The notes under the pieces are model-generated. The model had not been told where the DNA came from. It was given only the letters and a program-made list of their open reading frames with translations, and did not search any database. A program made the position numbers and the translations under genes. A DNA stretch of 61,019 nucleotides, the filler included, from Stramenopiles sp. TOSAG23-3 (Eukaryota), in NCBI GenBank assembly GCA_900128585.1. It is 16 parts of 16 records of this genome, joined end to end, with 100 filler letters (N's around TTAATTAATTAA, not from the genome) between each part and the next. Parts side by side here need not be neighbours in the genome. Positions count along the whole stretch, not along the records: positions 1 to 3,733 come from LT644096.1; 15 more parts are not named here. One strand, given 5' to 3'. How positions within the stretch are numbered: position 1 is the first letter of the stretch; the number at the start of each line of letters is the position of its first letter. Shown here in pieces: positions 1-26,219 of this stretch.

Positions 1-23
1 GCCACCCTGATCTGTCCAAAATT

Positions 24-1748
24 ATGGATGTGGAGCTGTGGGAAGCCCAGTTCGAGAAAGCCATGCAAGGCGAATTGCACGCTACGTTGTCGTTGGCAAA
101 TTTTCAAGCGTGGTTGGACCTGGTTCTCCAAACGCAGCACGAACAAGATGTCCACGCGGAACATGCACGGAAGGAAAAAGAAGATAAAGCAAAACGCGAA
201 GCTGATCGCAAAATTGAAATTTTGCTGACACGAGAGAACTTTAAAGATGTCGTGCTCGGTGAACTGGACTCGGGACAAAGGGCTTCCCGGCTGCTGTACG
301 GGTTGCGGACATGGTTAGGGGATTCGTTTCCAAACGTGTTGCTGGAAGCTGAAGAGATTCATCTGGCCGATGCAGAATGGAATTTTACTGCCCTTGCAAG
401 TTTGTTTGTGAACCACGCTACCTTGCAACCGGATCAACTTCCCTTTGTTACAGACTTTCACAACTTGCACACGTTGGAAAAGAATTGGAAGAAAGTTACG
501 AGCGCAGCTAAAACTACTGAAGATGACCCAACTATTGCGCTAGAGACGCTGAGCAAACGAATCAATAATATTTCTAACAAAGTCACTCAGAGGATTTCAA
601 AGCTCGAAAGTGGCCACCAACTCTGGTGGCGATGTGCTCGCACGGTACTATCTCGCCTCGTTAATGATTTGTGCCGGCGTGCACGAGGTATAGAGGGAAC
701 CGTTGGCGCCGATGAAATTGAACGGGAAAAGGGCTCGTTCATGAAACTGTCTTTTATGAAAATCCAGCAACTGCTACAGGAGGAAGATGACGCACGTTTT
801 GCATTTGAAGAGATTACAGACTACATAGGGGAGAGTTTTATGGAGCTACGAAAGGTTTACAAGGCCTATGGTGCAATGGGTGGAGGTGGCAGCACAATGT
901 CAATGGCTGAATTTTTGATGCTCGTTCGAGATTGTAAACTAATTGACAAAAAGTTCACTTCCCAAGATGTCGATTTAGTGTTTATAAAAACAAACATTGA
1001 GATAGATGAAGTTACGGGCGAAAGAGTGGAGATTGCAATGAATCCGAACAAAGCACTAACAACCACCGAATTTGTAGAAGCAATCGTTCGTGTGTCGCAT
1101 GGATTTTATAAGTCCAGACTCAAACAGCCATTGATCACTTGCATCAAGAGAGTCATGGAAGACCACATCGTCCCGTTTGCTAAGCGATCGGACGCGGAAG
1201 CTTTTAGAAAGAAACTGGCATCTCCAGAGCTAAGAGGTGTCTTTCAGAGACACGGGGATCGCTTAAAGCTTCTTTTTGACAAATATAGTAAGGCGGATGA
1301 CAGCGACATTCACGAGGATAGGGCGGGAGAAACCATGAATATAAAAGAGTTTATGCAGTTGATGAAGGACAAACAATTGCTTGGAAACAAGCTACCGCAC
1401 AAAACCGTGCAGCAATTGTTCCAGAACGTTCAAAATGACGATGCTGCATTCGAGGAAGACGATGATGACATGGATGCGGAAGTGGACTATGACGAGTTTG
1501 TGGAAAGTGTGGCTGCTGTTGCTTGCATTGTCTATCCCAACCCGTACGTCGCGTTTGAACAAAGGATTGAACGGTTCATTCTCTCCTATCTTTTGGTTGG
1601 CGAGAAAAGAGAGAGCAAAAAAGGCACGAGCAAAGGAAGCTCCAAAACCAGTGGAAAGGACAAAAAGAAGGATAAGCGCAAAGGTTCTGTTGGGAGCCCG
1701 AAGTCTGGTCAGAATAGCAGGAAGAAAAAGACAACTCTAAGAAAATAA
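24..1748 (+). CDS. EF-hand / p25alpha(TPPP)-like repeat protein, probably cytoskeletal or flagellar; may be 5'-incomplete
   Basis: 574-aa ORF with EFLMLVRDCKLIDKKFTSQDVDLVFIK (p25alpha-like), EF-hand-like segments MNIKEFMQLM and VDYDEFVE, and a Lys-rich tail. Confidence 0.55.
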   Translation: MDVELWEAQFEKAMQGELHATLSLANFQAWLDLVLQTQHEQDVHAEHARKEKEDKAKREADRKIEILLTRENFKDVVLGELDSGQRASRLLYGLRTWLGDSFPNVLLEAEEIHLADAEWNFTALASLFVNHATLQPDQLPFVTDFHNLHTLEKNWKKVTSAAKTTEDDPTIALETLSKRINNISNKVTQRISKLESGHQLWWRCARTVLSRLVNDLCRRARGIEGTVGADEIEREKGSFMKLSFMKIQQLLQEEDDARFAFEEITDYIGESFMELRKVYKAYGAMGGGGSTMSMAEFLMLVRDCKLIDKKFTSQDVDLVFIKTNIEIDEVTGERVEIAMNPNKALTTTEFVEAIVRVSHGFYKSRLKQPLITCIKRVMEDHIVPFAKRSDAEAFRKKLASPELRGVFQRHGDRLKLLFDKYSKADDSDIHEDRAGETMNIKEFMQLMKDKQLLGNKLPHKTVQQLFQNVQNDDAAFEEDDDDMDAEVDYDEFVESVAAVACIVYPNPYVAFEQRIERFILSYLLVGEKRESKKGTSKGSSKTSGKDKKKDKRKGSVGSPKSGQNSRKKKTTLRK

Positions 1749-1819
1749 GAGAGAAAGGAGAAGGGCAATTCTACACAATTTAAAGTAAGTCAATTTACCA
1801 AAAAAGTAAAACACCCAGG

Positions 1820-3553
1820 TTATTGAAAAAACGGTGGAATGGCGCCTTTTCTGCTACTTCGGAGCATGTTCCCCCGCCCACGGCCTTGTTCGAAACTTTG
1901 ATGTGGCTTTGGGGCTTCTCCAACACCGTCGTACCCTGAGAATTCAGAGGTCGTGCTTATCACCGTTGCATCCCTCAAATCCAAGAGCGCTTGTTGCTCC
2001 TTCAATGCTTTCTTCTTCTTTTCTTCGGCTGCTCTCTTCAATTCTGCCTCCTCTCGTTGTTGCTCCATCCGTTTTCGCCTGGCAGCACTTTCCTTTTGCC
2101 GTTGCTTTTTTAAATCACTCTCGTGTGTGCTGTCCATAACAAATGCCTCCAGCTCTGCGTGACGACCGAGGCAATTGGGACACACAGGCTGGGAATTGTC
2201 ACCGTTTGTGAAGAAGGGGTGATCCCTTGCTTCCTGTAGCGATATCCTCTCAGAGGGGTTGATCCGCAAAATTTTGTCTAACAGATCAACCATGTCGTCT
2301 GGGTACTTCTTAAACGTCTCTCGCACGCAGCGCGGGTATTTCGGCAGGTTCAGCACTCTTTCCTTGGTCTCTTCAGTCAAATTCGCATCCAAATACTGGA
2401 CCCAACCTGGACCTTGTTCTGGGGTCCCACACAGCTTTAATATTTTAATAAGCTGGTCAACTTCTGACATACCAGGCAAAATTGGTTTTCCTCGGCGAAG
2501 CATCTCGGCAAAAATGCACCCGGCGGACCACAAATCAATCTTTGTTCCGTATATTCCAGGCCGATCCGATTTTTGAAGCTTTTCTTGCAGCAACAGCTCG
2601 GGTGCCCTCCAGCAAAGACTCACTACATTGACTGAGTACAAGTTTTTCACGGTGATTCGACCTCCTATGCCACTCTGGTTGGGGCAATAATATTTTAAAA
2701 ATTGGGGAGTCGCTGTATCTACTTGAAACGCAAAGCCAGCACCAGGCTCACCACAGGGAACGTTTTCTCTGAAAAGTCCGTAAGTGTAATCCTCGGTTCC
2801 CTGAACCCACCTGGAGACGAATAGCGGGTACCCTTTGTTGCTCTCATGGGACTGGTCGAAAAAGTAAACGGCTGGACTCAACAAGCGCAATGGCAATTTC
2901 CTAACACTACAAAAGTCTGCCCAAGGGCCACGGGTCATCCAGAAACACCCATCAACCACCCTCACATTTATGGTCGTCCTGCCCTTAGCTTCGCTTAGCT
3001 CCTTTCGTGCCATTCCCCAATCTGCGAGCTTAATGCAGTGTGAGTCTTTTGACAACAACAAATTTGCTGGCTTCAAGTCGCGGTGCATAACACGCTTGTT
3101 CTCTGCAAACACCAAAGCGTTCAAAATTTGTCTCATGTAACACTTGACGTTGTCGATTGTTATAAGCGTAGTCGGGTTCGCCAGCAAAGCGCCAAAATCA
3201 TAGTCTAGGTACTCAAACACCATACAGATGGCATCTTTCCAATCTGCGCCGTCTTCTCCGTCATACTCTGCGTCGGCGTGAACAATGTCTACTAAACCAA
3301 CAATATTTGGATGACGTTCTTCCTTCGGCAGCATGAGCTCACTCAATAAAAAATTGATTTCGCGCAGTGTGGTTATGGGAAACCCTTCATTATACTTTTC
3401 TGCCCATGCCATCTTTATCTTCTTGATTGCCACTAGTTTCCCATCGCTTTTGCTCCGCGCTTTAGTGACCATTCCGTACTGGCCTTCGCCAAGGACGGAG
3501 ACGAGCGTATAGTGGGCCGAGCACAACCTTTTCTTCCCATTGTTTGCGAACAT
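1820..3553 (-). CDS. Cyclin-dependent kinase (CDK9/CDK11-like) with a large activation-loop insertion
   Basis: GEGQYG, VAIKK, PITTLRE cyclin-binding helix, HRDLKPAN, DWG, WRAPE, DLWSAG. Likely ATG at 3553 (MFANN). Confidence 0.9.
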   Translation of the reverse strand: MFANNGKKRLCSAHYTLVSVLGEGQYGMVTKARSKSDGKLVAIKKIKMAWAEKYNEGFPITTLREINFLLSELMLPKEERHPNIVGLVDIVHADAEYDGEDGADWKDAICMVFEYLDYDFGALLANPTTLITIDNVKCYMRQILNALVFAENKRVMHRDLKPANLLLSKDSHCIKLADWGMARKELSEAKGRTTINVRVVDGCFWMTRGPWADFCSVRKLPLRLLSPAVYFFDQSHESNKGYPLFVSRWVQGTEDYTYGLFRENVPCGEPGAGFAFQVDTATPQFLKYYCPNQSGIGGRITVKNLYSVNVVSLCWRAPELLLQEKLQKSDRPGIYGTKIDLWSAGCIFAEMLRRGKPILPGMSEVDQLIKILKLCGTPEQGPGWVQYLDANLTEETKERVLNLPKYPRCVRETFKKYPDDMVDLLDKILRINPSERISLQEARDHPFFTNGDNSQPVCPNCLGRHAELEAFVMDSTHESDLKKQRQKESAARRKRMEQQREEAELKRAAEEKKKKALKEQQALLDLRDATVISTTSEFSGYDGVGEAPKPHQSFEQGRGRGNMLRSSRKGAIPPFFQ

Positions 3554-3733
3554 TATTTCCTGTGCAAAAGAGAGAGAGTGAGAGAAAAAAAATCCAACGC
3601 TGTAGTTCAATACATTATTCACCTGCAGCTCCAAACAAGATCGTGTGCCTTTTTTCCCTTTATGCTCTTGATCACCATCATTCTTTTTCTTCTGGGAAGA
3701 AAGAAGTAGGAAGTTGTGGGGGGAAGCATAAAA

Positions 3734-3833
3734 NNNNNNNNNNNNNNNNNNNNNNNNNNNNNNNNNNNNNNNNNNNNTTAATTAATTAANNNNNNNNNNN
3801 NNNNNNNNNNNNNNNNNNNNNNNNNNNNNNNNN
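3734..3833. other. Artificial contig linker N44-TTAATTAATTAA-N44 (first of 15)
   Basis: Identical 100-nt spacer with stops in all frames at 3734, 7567, 11398, 15225, 19050, 22873, 26692, 30510, 34328, 38145, 41961, 45777, 49592, 53404 and 57215. Intervening contigs shrink steadily from 3733 to 3711 bp. Confidence 0.99.
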
Positions 3834-7515: not shown

Positions 7516-7694
7516 AGCGGGCCGGGCGCGCGCGTGTAAAAGTAATTGCCCGCACTCCACAAAAATNNNNNNNNNNNNNNNNNNNNNNNNNNNNNNNNNN
7601 NNNNNNNNNNTTAATTAATTAANNNNNNNNNNNNNNNNNNNNNNNNNNNNNNNNNNNNNNNNNNNNTTATAAGCTGAGCGATGAGGTAGAGAAC

Positions 7695-11397: not shown

Positions 11398-11503
11398 NNN
11401 NNNNNNNNNNNNNNNNNNNNNNNNNNNNNNNNNNNNNNNNNTTAATTAATTAANNNNNNNNNNNNNNNNNNNNNNNNNNNNNNNNNNNNNNNNNNNNGCA
11501 GCA

Positions 11504-23076: not shown

Positions 23077-24206
23077 TTACTCGGTCAATTCGATCGTCGC
23101 ATCTACCCCGCATCCTACTAGCGAGCCTGTTCTTAACTGTGATTCTCCCATCAATTTCGACATCGCCAGGCATTTCGTCTTCACTTGCCGGCAATAGACT
23201 TTCCAGCTGTCAGACTTCCATCGACCGAACTTCATAATTTCTGCGTCACTCGCGCCTCCTTCCCACATCATAGTGGCTCCTCCAATCCTGCCGGAGTGTG
23301 TGCCGTATGAATTGCTCGCAATTCCTATCCTTTCCAGGGACCTTTTCAGAAATTTCCGGTATTCATCTTTAGGCATATCGAAGACTTTCTCGTCGTTGTG
23401 AAAGGTTCCCTCCATTTCCTTCACTCTTCTCCATGCTTTCGCCAGTTCGATTGGGTCCCAACTGCCCCCTCTACTGTTTCTATGGGGTCGTCGCTGGCAC
23501 AGCACTACATACTCTGGGAGGCCTTCATTGAATCTGGCTGTCTTCGTATTCCTCAGTGTCAATGTCATGATCAGGACGGCGTCTGGGCTCAAATTCCGGT
23601 ACCCGGGGGTTCTCAGGACCTCTATTTTCACTTCTTTCCATTTCAAGTTCATTACTTCTGAAATGCGCAACAACCCAAAGACGGTGAACAATAGGATGGT
23701 CGCGGCTTGCAGCCCTTCCCTGTTTCTCACATCGATCGCTCTCGTGGCTTCCATCTCATCTATCATGGACAAGAAAATTGGCATTTTTCTCTTCTTTCCT
23801 GAACCAAATTGTTTCTTTATCCGTTGCATCATTTCCTCCAAAGTTACCGTGGGATTCCACTCCTCTCTTGCTTCTTTGGTTGCTCGTACTAGTGCCGCTA
23901 GGTACGCGTAGAAAGAGTCTGCCGAGGTCATTGCTAATTTCCCAGCATTCGCTCCGCTCAGAACTCTCCGCTCAGTGTTCCACTGCATCCAATCTGCTAA
24001 TCTCGCGGTCATGGCCTCTCGGTCTTGGAGGCTGCGTCCGAAACTCACATACGTATCCAGCCTGTATTCTCTACAGAAATTCCGCCAATTTTTCACTCCT
24101 GTAGCTGTCGTTTTCCTTGTGTTCACTGCGTACCCGTGTTTGTAGTTATCTCTACGACGGCGTTCTGCCAGTTCCTCTCGTCGGATTTCTTGAGGTAACA
24201 CCTCTC
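23077..24206 (-). CDS. Tyrosine recombinase (YR integrase)
   Basis: GLLRISE (R), TKT (K), HSGRIGGAT (HxxR), GRWKS..VY (W, Y); overlaps the RT ORF end in the -1 frame. Confidence 0.92.
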
Positions 24207-26219
24207 CTGTTTAAAATTCGGTATTTGGTTAGTTATCGTTTTGAAATCTTCTAAGTCTCCTCTGCTAAGTGCGTCTGCCAGGCGGTTGTCTTTTGAAGAG
24301 ATGTATTCGACTCTCGTTCTGCTCTTGTTCTTCGTCTTCCAGAACTTTAGCATCGTACCTGCTTCTACCATTGCTTTTACAATCAGTCTTATTATGACGG
24401 CCAGGTCCACGTCTTTAGCTCGTCCTTTCTTCAGGGCGCTCGTGACACTGTTGTTATCGCATCGCAATGTCAGGTTTATTTTTCTATGACAAAGTGACTT
24501 CCCAAACAACGCTATTAACGCGAAGAGTCCTAACCCTTCCTTTATGTGTATTTTCAGATCTTTCTCAGATTCTTTCCACACTCCATAAGCGTAACCCTTC
24601 ATGCACACCGCTCCCCACCCAATGCTCCCTGACGCATCTGAAGCTGGGGCTATCGTGCCTTTCGCTAAATTGAAACCTTCTTTTGGCACGTCCTCCCATT
24701 TATCTCTCAACAAAGCTTGGCGACCATTCCAGTTTTCAAACTGGTATATTATTTCGTTCCAGTCATGCCTTATGTCATCTAGCATCTTAATTTTCATTCC
24801 TGCTTTCATGCCGCTCTTTCTTCTCTTGACGCTACCTCTTTTCGTTCTCCTCATGTGATCGTCTGTCATTGCACGTATCATGCTCCACGTTTTCGTCAGG
24901 AACATTCTTATTTGTGGGATTGCTGTTGTCGTCCAATTTATTACTCCTGTTGTCGACTCCCAATCGCGCAAACTTCTCTTGAATCCTTTTGTCATAAACG
25001 ATTTCATTTCATCCACGATCTCCGCAACCCTCGGTTTCGGGATCCCGACTGTTAAGTTGGTGAAATCGTACCATAACCCCAGTATTGTCAACGTGCTGCT
25101 TCCTTTCGCTCCGTTCGGGTTGTCTTCTAAAAATTTCTGTTCTTGTCTTGGAATTTTCCATCGCTTGAAGAGGGCGAGGGCTTCTTGGACTGCCCTCTCA
25201 ATTACGCTTTCGTGTGCCACGATGATCAGGTCATCGAAGTACATCGCCGCACGCGCACCCCATTCATCGAACTTCGTTTTCGTCACGAGATATGTGATTA
25301 TCAATAGTGGCAACCGTAGGAAATTATAGACTGAAGTCTTCAATCCAAACGGCCACCTCTTGTGATAAGCGCTTTTTCCTGCTACCCGAAAGCACAGTGC
25401 CCACCAGTCCGCCGGGTGTGTGCATAACGTCCTGAACGCTGATTTTATGTCTATCTTCACGCCTTTAATCCCTTTTGGGTCCAATCCTTCGCGAACGCAC
25501 CAGTCGTGGACCTCCCATATGTTCGAATGAACGCGCTCCCCTTGTGGGAGGTCCAGGCTTCGGAACTCCCCGGTCTCTTCGTTTATTGATAGTCCATCCC
25601 GACCTCGTGCCGAGAAGTCGCTTATTGTTCTGCAATCGTATGGGTCGCCATTTTCTTTTGCCTTTCTGTCCGTTCGCGCTTTCGGGATCGCTCCCTGCTT
25701 TGTCTCCCGGTACACTTCCAAGCTGTCGTCTCGCAGCGCGACTCGGTCTGCTGCTAGTTCTTCGTCGAACTTTTTCCGGACCTTTTCCTTCGCGTTTTCC
25801 GTCATAACATAATTGGACTTAATCTCGACTGTCTCGAACGGTAGTTCGAAGTTGCATGGCCCTCCCGACTTGATATATTGAACAAATTGTCCATCGCAAT
25901 ACGTCGGCATGTCTTGTCTTATCCTGTCGGCGTCTAAGGTGTTATTCGTGCTCGGTCTTTCGTCCAGCTCTGCCTTGTATGGGTGCCCCCATGTCTTGCC
26001 TGCGTTCAGCCTATCTCTAATTGTGACAAAGTCCGCTGAGGGGATATCGATCGTGTTAAGGTCGCCGAAATCCAACGATCTATATACGACTCTTCCTTGT
26101 TCCAAACTCAGTTGGCCCGGTTCAATATTCATCCGTGCACCTATTTCCCTGGCCTGTGCTAGGATGCCCCCGTCCAAGGTTACGTGTGGCTCGTACTCGG
26201 CGCGTGTCTCTGCTGCGAG
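24123..26219 (-). CDS. pol: Reverse transcriptase - RNase H
   Basis: KIDIKSAFR, WPFGL, YFDD (25230-25241), ILGL; RNase H motifs SDAS, HIKE, CDN, NRLADALSR. Confidence 0.93.
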   Translation of the reverse strand, partial: LAAETRAEYEPHVTLDGGILAQAREIGARMNIEPGQLSLEQGRVVYRSLDFGDLNTIDIPSADFVTIRDRLNAGKTWGHPYKAELDERPSTNNTLDADRIRQDMPTYCDGQFVQYIKSGGPCNFELPFETVEIKSNYVMTENAKEKVRKKFDEELAADRVALRDDSLEVYRETKQGAIPKARTDRKAKENGDPYDCRTISDFSARGRDGLSINEETGEFRSLDLPQGERVHSNIWEVHDWCVREGLDPKGIKGVKIDIKSAFRTLCTHPADWWALCFRVAGKSAYHKRWPFGLKTSVYNFLRLPLLIITYLVTKTKFDEWGARAAMYFDDLIIVAHESVIERAVQEALALFKRWKIPRQEQKFLEDNPNGAKGSSTLTILGLWYDFTNLTVGIPKPRVAEIVDEMKSFMTKGFKRSLRDWESTTGVINWTTTAIPQIRMFLTKTWSMIRAMTDDHMRRTKRGSVKRRKSGMKAGMKIKMLDDIRHDWNEIIYQFENWNGRQALLRDKWEDVPKEGFNLAKGTIAPASDASGSIGWGAVCMKGYAYGVWKESEKDLKIHIKEGLGLFALIALFGKSLCHRKINLTLRCDNNSVTSALKKGRAKDVDLAVIIRLIVKAMVEAGTMLKFWKTKNKSRTRVEYISSKDNRLADALSRGDLEDFKTITNQIPNFKQERCYLKKSDERNWQNAVVEITTNTGTQ

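Follow-up and report, generated by a model that had tools for sequence, protein, structure and literature searches.

A stramenopile cyclin-dependent kinase with a predicted cupredoxin-like, phage-type domain in its activation segment

The activation segments of cyclin-dependent kinases (CDKs) are usually ∼25–30 residues long, and few regulatory loops of eukaryotes are as constrained or as well studied. Sequence between the DFG and APE motifs that modulates activation or localization is known from the auto-inhibitory segment of NDR/LATS, the middle region of Greatwall/MASTL and the insertion of the plant AGCVIII kinases; these insertions are basic or disordered and arose within the AGC kinases. 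Here we describe a kinase gene in a 61,019-base stretch of DNA from Stramenopiles sp. TOSAG23-3 (the window) in which the host kinase is instead of the CMGC/CDK type and the inserted sequence is predicted to be a globular domain, very probably of a family borne by phage virions. In CDK2 only 7 residues stand where the kinase described here has a 121-residue segment holding the folded domain, and the part of the CDK2 T-loop that is replaced is in contact with the cyclin and rearranges when the cyclin binds. A CDK with a folded phage-type domain in its activation segment is unprecedented; the function of the domain is proposed from its position.

The protein encoded by the gene is a CDK. The Pfam Pkinase model matched it with an E value of 1.4e-47, the match being split into two stretches (the first at residues 15–189), and the motifs of the N-lobe and catalytic loop are GEGQYG, VAIKK, a PITTLRE helix, HRDLKPAN and LADWG. 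Sequence matches in the Protein Data Bank (PDB) were led by CDK2 and CDK9 at E values of about 5e-46 (best 5.4e-46), and all of the 60 matches shown are of the CDK/CDC2 type by name except 3niz, which is titled ‘Rhodanese family protein’. CDK9 was matched at about 4e-45, and CDK2 scores equally well by sequence. A 470-residue model of the kinase has a mean predicted local distance difference test (pLDDT) score of 81.8 and a predicted template modelling (pTM) score of 0.78, with low confidence only in a linker at residues 181–190 and in two loops of the inserted domain. Foldseek placed CDK12–cyclin K first for this model, followed by CDK2, CDK9 and CDK7, and the 50 listed matches are all CDKs. 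Among the sequence relatives that carry a name, CDKC-1/2 and ‘CDK12/13’ score best, so that sequence and model both point to probable membership of the transcriptional CDK12/CDK9/plant-CDKC group. With CDK12/CDK13, CDK9 and CDKC the kinase shares a PITAIRE-like helix (PITTLRE here), HRDLKPxN, a Ser or Thr at the position of CDK2 Thr160, APE and a C-terminal (S/T)HE followed by a basic run. The segment GFPITTLREI, its putative cyclin-binding helix of the PSTAIRE type, aligns to GFPITAIREI of the CDKC/CDK12-type relatives. Identity to these relatives is, however, only ∼30–43% over the best segments, and the kinase departs from the transcriptional CDKs by DWG in place of DFG, by small lineage-specific insertions of 3, 7 and 8 residues (the last follows APE) and by a CxxC..H before the HE motif.

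The kinase was found in five lineages, that of the window and four environmental ones, and its catalytic residues (the Gly loop, K44, E65, D159, K161, N164, D178 and APE) are kept across them; the sole exception to the invariance of the catalytic signatures is the change of the DFG Phe to Trp. DWG is also present in two CDK relatives that lack the insert (P0099 and P0107) and is thus not tied to it. The T-loop phospho-acceptor is Ser307 in the window and Thr in the other four lineages. An earlier reading of the window, made from its sequence without database searches (the sequence-only reading), had described a catalytically intact CDK with Ser for the usual T-loop Thr. Both points are upheld: the protein has GxGxxG, VAIK, PITTLRE, HRDLKPAN, the Asp of DWG and APE, its nearest solved sequences and folds are those of CDK2, CDK9 and CDK12, and Ser307 aligns to Thr160 of CDK2.

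The same reading had placed roughly 110 extra in-frame residues between DWG and VVSLCWRAPE, at positions 2640–3000. The alignment to CDK2 gives a segment at residues 184–304 (2642–3004), hence ∼114 extra residues, and 129 residues separate the two motifs; the strings quoted in that reading are all present and its borders were right to within a few bases. Residue 183 pairs with R150 of CDK2, and L305-Y306-S307 with T158-Y159-T160 (CDK2 numbering derived from an 8-residue tag offset read in the PDB chain). The segment opens within a linker whose first residues, MARKEL, are invariant among the orthologues, and the domain that follows includes GEPGAGF at residues 268–274 and PQFLKYYCPNQSGIGGRITVKN at residues 283–304.

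A domain family was found with a profile made of the five kinase inserts, which was searched against 1.84 billion representative proteins and matched 949 of them at E ≤ 1e-3, 51 at E ≤ 1e-10 and 4 at E ≤ 1e-30. Because many of these relatives show between 2 and 17 matched stretches, the unit is a repeated domain of ∼90–115 residues. The consensus of 273 copies from the best 149 proteins reads L.L..G.TY.FDQSDSSN.GHPLRFSTT.DGTH..GG.EYTTG.VT..GTPG..GAYT.I.V...TP..LYYYC.NHSGMGG, which is the same as the YxFDQSxxSN...GxxGA...PxxLYYYC module that the sequence-only reading had pointed to, and the window carries the family signatures as YFFDQSHESN, EPGAGF, TPQFLKYYC and IGG. A reciprocal profile built from 271 non-kinase copies alone matched the kinase (P0001) end to end, over residues 192–307 and profile positions 3–121 of 122, with 96.4 bits, far above chance (E 5.7e-26 when 1e6 sequences are assumed). 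It also matched all the other kinase orthologues and fragments, but none of 114 CDK relatives without the insert (P0008–P0121). The profile was essential, as a search with the single insert sequence returned only kinase orthologues (5 of 83 candidates). No Pfam family was found on the insert at E ≤ 1, no NCBIfam family on the insert or on seven short relatives, and 17 of 28 relatives lack any Pfam match. An apparent relation to methionine sulfoxide reductase B3, seen with phmmer against the PDB (E 0.036), was lost when the five-sequence profile was used (best E 0.4, to an unrelated protein) and is taken as chance.

The family is predominantly one of phage virion proteins; the sequence-only reading had named marine phage structural proteins and prokaryotic surface proteins as its carriers. 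Searched alone against the PHROGs models, the insert gave weak matches to a tail fibre family (phrog_30742, E 8e-4) and to phrog_27200 (E 3.7e-3). Its relatives match PHROG models at E values of 1e-20 to 1e-140, and 18 of the 19 scanned match tail-fibre, baseplate-wedge or virion families through the domain, which is common to phrog_30742, 677, 693, 708, 27200 and 6005. In IMG/VR, 464 of 604 matches to the family pattern encode relatives, and none of the 80 loci kept has a giant-virus metagenome-assembled genome (MAG) label in its name. When one relative (P0195) was used as the query, 17 cultured phage records were found, all marine (phages of Synechococcus, Prochlorococcus, Pelagibacter and Methylophilales); the annotation under these matches is mostly tail fibre or virion structural protein, and in a few cases only hypothetical protein. 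Structural comparison with BFVD agrees, the top matches being tail-fibre, baseplate-connector and virion proteins of T4-like cyanophages, with query-normalized template modelling (TM) scores of 0.60–0.75 and E values of about 1e-8. A word-indexed profile search returned almost exclusively environmental proteins, the one organism-named protein being from Synechococcus phage S-B68, and the Protein Atlas pointed to viral clusters and to one bacterial cluster (17% Copper-bind), which is a lead only. By the IMG/VR test, the full kinase gene is not viral, since no orthologue is present there: the search returned only four generic kinases at 30–38% identity, and kinase-specific patterns gave 147 pattern matches and no relatives. 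A further copy of the domain was found neither in the 61-kb window nor in loci L001–L026, except in the orthologues on L005 and L006. These data make it very probable that the insert belongs to this phage-type, cupredoxin-like family.

A minority of the proteins that carry the domain (P0126, P0139, P0147, P0184, P0188, P0194, P0261 and P0269) contain LamG, F5/8 type C or DUF4347 domains and have little or no PHROG signal. These carriers look like cellular surface proteins, and the LamG/DUF4347-type copies share the N-terminal ‘TVxV..G.FW’ strands of the insert.

Modelling of the insert by AlphaFold2 with 40 aligned rows gave a mean pLDDT of 82.8, a pTM of 0.75 and nine β-strands, and in both this model and that of the full kinase the strands span residues 192–304. 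The top Foldseek matches in the PDB are copper nitrite reductase, rusticyanin, two-domain small laccases and plastocyanin (E 4e-5 to 1e-3, TM 0.44–0.54). The all-against-all VIA aligner, which is independent of Foldseek, returned Z scores of 6–8.6 across 50 listed entries, 49 of which (all but rank 40) we take to be proteins built of cupredoxin-type domains. The cupredoxin-like fold is accepted because the match list is uniform; a Z score near 8 is not strong alone. The model thus predicts a cupredoxin-like Greek-key sandwich, and the earlier description of the insert as folded and cupredoxin-like is borne out by the confidence of the model and by the cupredoxins at the top of both PDB fold searches. 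Plastocyanin, amicyanin, rusticyanin and the laccase and nitrite reductase domains have the Greek-key sandwich that is predicted here. In contrast to these proteins, the insert, known from sequence and model, is only 9–16% identical to the solved chains and keeps one of the four ligand positions.

Within the family the columns equivalent to copper ligands are His in 72% of copies (in GHPL), Cys in 80%, His in 77% and Met in 89%, the last three as C-x2-H-x2-M. The spacing of this loop is, we assume, that of the short ligand loop of amicyanin. The His...Cys-x2-His-x2-Met pattern looks like a type-1 copper site, and the motif suggests that blue-copper-like domains may occur in marine phage tail fibres. 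The kinase copies have departed from this pattern. At the first ligand position, where 13% of the family have Tyr, all five kinase lineages have Tyr (GHPL changed to GYPL, Y242). Cys290 is common to all five, the second His is replaced by Q, R, E, Q and E, and at the Met position stand I, I, M, M and M. One of the four ligands is therefore left in the window (Tyr242, Cys290, Gln293, Ile296), whereas the three lineages with Met keep two (Cys and Met). The replacement of His and Met by Gln and Ile had been read correctly from the sequence (Q293, I296), and the loss of a third ligand at Y242 is added to it. Because the ligand residues are replaced, a classical type-1 site is impossible in the kinase copy. 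Residues that are invariant in the kinase clade (GCFW..RGPW, His236, Tyr242 and Pro291) suggest a new conserved surface.

Compared with the repeat domain of phage tail fibres, the insert has in common the Y-x-F-D-Q-S-x-x-S-N, P-G-x-G-A, T-P-x-x-L-x-Y-Y-C and G-G motifs and the same predicted sandwich. The phage virion proteins carry the domain in tandem and extracellularly, whereas the kinase has a single copy inside a loop, and that copy differs by the replaced His, His and Met, by its clade-specific invariant residues and by its long stem in the tree. The literature offered little for comparison: a full-text search, with subscription journals outside its coverage, found nothing that joins cupredoxins and tail fibres, and, judged by titles and abstracts, nothing relevant was found on cyanophage tail fibres, on CDK domain insertions or on kinase activation loops together with cupredoxins.

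The insert is present at the same site in all close relatives of the kinase. A search with the whole protein retrieved one identical sequence (P0002, 100%) and four (P0003–P0006) with 55–61% identity over 97–98% of the query length; the next relatives were CDKC or CDK12/13-type kinases, for which the best segment covers ∼30% of the length. The search for orthologues advised by the sequence-only reading thus located the insert in four further lineages. There its identity is 50–55%, and across the five lineages the mean column identity is 70%, with 54 invariant columns. The window gene aligns colinearly, in one tblastn segment each, with two independent metagenome contigs, L005 (residues 8–505) and L006 (residues 8–575). 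Synonymous differences are saturated in every region of the gene (proportion of synonymous differences, pS, 0.7–1.0). In the insert, the proportion of nonsynonymous differences (pN) is 0.18 between L005 and L006 (pS 0.81), 0.33 between the window and L006 (pS 0.91) and 0.35 between the window and L005, values intermediate between those of the N-lobe (0.08–0.17) and of the C-terminal tail (0.19–0.43). As pN is far below the saturated pS, the insert is a coding segment under purifying selection. The G+C content at third codon positions is 0.53 in the insert and 0.53–0.54 in its flanks and shows no compositional sign of recent arrival. One further protein, P0007 (382 residues, from a 26.9-kb contig), is close to P0006 but diverges in the insert after GAGFKFF and ends early, and looks like a frameshifted or mis-called copy.

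Environmental sequencing runs provide further evidence for the gene. At least 76% of its sampled words occur in 14 DNA runs (marine metagenomes), and the gene is present whole or in part in 20 runs from 13 studies; six metatranscriptome runs contain 23–30% of the words, and four other listed runs, with a share of 0.00, are uninformative. RNA contigs from four metatranscriptome runs were placed on the gene. One (run X16) lies inside the insert at 2776–2926, another (run X17) extends over the DWG-side border at 2887–3061, and a polyA-selected library covers 2098–2303 and 3248–3562. No joint was seen in the RNA contigs of the four runs, which is consistent with retention of the insert in the mRNA. 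It is close to certain that the insert is real, coding and conserved.

The five kinase copies of the domain form one group with a support of 99 in the Shimodaira–Hasegawa-like approximate likelihood ratio test (SH-aLRT). A single ancient insertion is well supported by the sequences, given the shared site and the grouping of the copies in one clade. A foreign origin of the domain is plausible, since the family is overwhelmingly phage-borne and marine. The suggestion in the sequence-only reading that the domain was horizontally acquired therefore stands as plausible but not as proven, as the stem of the clade is long and its neighbour unsupported.

The explanation that we consider likely is that of a CDK with an acquired, copper-less docking or gating domain in its activation segment. 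One complete, predicted β-sandwich domain of ∼113 residues was inserted between the strand that follows DWG and the phospho-acceptor of the T-loop, before the five lineages diverged, and has been kept since by purifying selection. The kinase-embedded copy retains the signature of the fold and would no longer be a blue-copper centre. Attached through a flexible N-terminal linker (8–10 residues, of low model confidence) and ending 3 residues from the phospho-acceptor, the domain is expected to be a bulky, rigidly joined sandwich beside the substrate groove, the cyclin and the site of the activating kinase. There it could serve as a built-in protein-binding or gating module and govern whether the activating kinase, the cyclin or the substrate can reach the T-loop and the P+1 site. 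A single acquisition is envisaged, with a phage or some other foreign DNA encountered in the sea as the most probable source. The docking or gating role in particular, as the most economical reading, is put forward tentatively, at a little under even chances. A bolder version, which we think unlikely, is that a clade of uncultured marine protists captured a domain of the receptor-binding type from a marine phage tail fibre, which is now an obligatory T-loop switch: a partner, or a redox or metal signal read through His236, Tyr242 and Cys290, would determine the exposure of the phospho-acceptor and of the substrate groove; in that case the capture might have been from ingested prey or virions and the recipient a CDK12/CDKC-like transcriptional kinase.

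If the proposed explanation holds, the CDK activation loop can tolerate and exploit a large graft, with a globular domain placed 3 residues before the phospho-acceptor and selected for in several lineages; this would be a natural example of the control of a kinase by domain insertion. The tie between a eukaryotic regulatory protein and a family of marine phage virions makes the insert a candidate for domain capture from phage to eukaryote, and an obligatory switch, if confirmed, would be the first folded virus-derived domain regulating a eukaryotic CDK from inside its activation segment, as far as the searches show. A by-product is the recognition of a domain that is highly abundant in the tail fibres of marine phages, is predicted to be cupredoxin-like, bears a conserved His/Cys/His/Met motif and has no Pfam or NCBIfam model.

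Several observations weigh against this explanation. The docking or gating role is deduced from position, the full activity of a kinase with DWG for DFG is an assumption, and the position of the domain with respect to the kinase is tentative. The likeness to cupredoxins is moderate, with TM values of 0.44–0.54 and Z scores near the range common for unrelated β-sandwiches. The Pfam Copper-bind family (PF00127) does not match the insert; it matches 2 of the 40 aligned rows, 34 of which are non-kinase family members, with a best E of 0.042 at a cut-off of E ≤ 0.1. (Among the 28 relatives, weak Copper-bind matches were seen only on P0123 and P0124, in the same region.) The insert is remote from every cultured phage: tblastn against 50,697 phage records gave no match at E 1e-5, and at E 1 it gave six records, the best being a tail fibre of Pelagibacter phage Mosig with 37% identity (E 4e-5). 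In the tree the stem of the kinase clade is 1.9 substitutions per site, and its only neighbour is the LamG/DUF4347-type copies, with an SH-aLRT support of 18, so that neither donor nor direction is fixed by the tree. The RNA support is thin, consisting of short metatranscriptome contigs from libraries that may contain DNA. Of the RNA check that the sequence-only reading had recommended, one half succeeded, the DWG-side border being bridged without a joint. The T-loop-side border at 2642 is uncovered, as none of the RNA contigs from the four runs lies over 2540–2775.

The weak grouping in the tree leads to the question of whether the domain came from phages at all. The insert might have been copied from a cellular surface protein of the LamG, F5/8 type C or DUF4347 kind, or the domain might be old in the eukaryotic lineage, with phages as its recipients. 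The nearest grouping is indeed that with five LamG/DUF4347-type copies, and the ‘TVxV..G.FW’ N-terminal strands are found in only ∼16 of the 273 copies, largely from proteins of this type; of the eight LamG-type proteins, four lack a PHROG match, three match phrog_30742 weakly (E 1.4e-14 to 3.2e-5) and the last matches an unrelated PHROG. An SH-aLRT of 18 is no support for the grouping, however; the LamG proteins could themselves be bacterial, viral or eukaryotic, and most members of the family are found in phage-type proteins and on viral contigs. A non-phage origin is thus held to be less probable than not, and by some way, while still the most serious of the competing explanations. By contrast, there is scarcely any chance that the insert is absent from the mature product as an unspliced intron, an intein, a mobile element or a chimera of assembly or amplification. 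The assembly is a draft of ∼3.7-kb contigs, and the very small size of the first two DNA runs would be in keeping with single-cell material that had been amplified, but the same in-frame insert at the same site in five lineages and on independent metagenome contigs, its conservation as protein despite saturated synonymous sites, its end-to-end match to a protein domain family and the joint-free RNA-library contigs in the insert and over one border all speak against such an artefact. On the same grounds of recurrence, protein conservation and RNA contigs, an intron or a chimera was rejected. An intein was rejected as well, as the predicted fold is a cupredoxin-like sandwich and not Hint; inteins need Cys, Ser or Thr after the C-terminal Asn, and here Asn304 is followed by Leu (Pro in the orthologues).

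Other alternatives accept the domain and differ over what it does. It might still be a chemical sensor, in which a remodelled site of His236, Tyr242 and Cys290 (with Met296 in three lineages) acts as a metal-responsive or redox thiol switch of activation. Cys290, His236 and Tyr242 are invariant in all five lineages, the latter two lying in the loop of the first ligand, Met is kept in three of the five, and His at position 236, rare in the family (16%), would be a clade-specific gain. Yet both family His residues are gone in every lineage (one to Tyr, the other to Gln, Arg or Glu), residue 293 is variable, the Met is Ile in two lineages and we know of no copper-site geometry with one Cys alone, which together render a sensor improbable. 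The kinase might alternatively be a pseudo-CDK, a scaffold in which DWG and the bulky T-loop domain abolish catalysis or cyclin dependence. The Phe of DFG is Trp in all lineages, and the T-loop segment equivalent to the cyclin contact of CDK2 is replaced by the linker and the domain. A loss of function of this kind is nevertheless highly improbable: all catalytic residues and the phospho-acceptor are conserved across the lineages, the strongest constraint is in the N-lobe, where pN is lowest, and the two insert-less relatives that also have DWG are otherwise ordinary-looking CDKs. A CDK carrying an acquired, copper-less domain thus remains the preferred reading, and the features of its gene are collected in Table 1.

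Table 1. Positions in the window of the features of the kinase gene and its product.
Feature	Position	Strand	Evidence or remark
Whole kinase gene	1820..3553	-	ATG 3553, TAA stop 1820-1822, 577 codons, single exon, no internal stop
N-lobe and catalytic loop to DWG, residues 15-180	3014..3511	-	First Pkinase stretch; aligns to CDK2 and CDK9
DWG for usual DFG, residues 178-180	3014..3022	-	Invariant in 5/5 lineages
Linker MARKELSEAKG, residues 181-191	2981..3013	-	pLDDT <50 at residues 181-190 in full model
Inserted domain, predicted cupredoxin-like, residues 192-304	2642..2980	-	Profile match, strands in both models, fold searches
YFFDQSHESNKGYPL motif, residues 230-244	2822..2866	-	Y242 at the family's first putative copper-ligand His position
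CPNQSGI, residues 290-296	2666..2686	-	Family C-x2-H-x2-M loop: Cys kept, His to Gln, Met to Ile
Rest of activation segment (APE) and C-lobe, residues 305-450	2204..2641	-	Second Pkinase stretch; CDK2 alignment 305-450
Ser307, equivalent of CDK2 Thr160	2633..2635	-	phmmer alignment to CDK2; 3 residues past the last strand of the domain
VVSLCWRAPE, residues 310-319	2597-2626	-	129 residues lie between it and DWG
CPNCLGRHAELEAFVMDSTHE, residues 458-478	2120..2182	-	Invariant C458, C461, H465, H477, E478
Lys/Glu/Arg-rich C-terminal tail, residues 479-577	1823..2119	-	Translation

Beyond the kinase domain, a C-x2-C-x3-H...(S/T)HE element is invariant and is followed by a basic run. THE and KKQRQK in the window align to SHEF..KKKRQQ of CDKC-type relatives, and the CxxC part consists of ∼9 extra, lineage-specific residues before this CDK12/CDKC-like HE and basic motif. 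Judged from its conserved residues, the C-x2-C-x3-H...H-E element may form a small zinc site. The tail is the least conserved region of the protein, with 43% identity to both L005 and L006.

The coding open reading frame (ORF; 1823–3553, minus strand) encodes 577 residues with the insert in frame and lies on the first contig of the window (1–3733). The window is interrupted by 30 runs of N in the form of N44-TTAATTAATTAA-N44 linkers, one about every 3.8 kb (3734–3833, 7567–7666, 11398–11497 and so on), between contigs of ∼3.7 kb whose length falls slowly along the stretch. As the stretch is a chain of separate contigs, genes on either side of a spacer are unlinked. The other contigs hold long uninterrupted ORFs for a replication factor C (RFC) subunit, RCC1 repeats, Utp13, RagA, a Na/H exchanger and a C2 domain; these are ordinary eukaryotic proteins from long uninterrupted ORFs, and the source is therefore an intron-poor eukaryote. 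The neighbour of the kinase gene is a p25-alpha (TPPP) domain gene (3–1748, plus strand) that is cut by the contig end. The two genes are convergent, 71 bases separating their stop codons, and in a synteny check the p25-alpha gene had no tblastn match on the orthologue loci L005–L009. On another contig, an ORF at 23080–24210 (minus strand) has a weak match to Phage_integrase, a tyrosine recombinase family, with an E value of 3.7e-6, just above the Pfam cut-off, and may be part of a eukaryotic mobile element.

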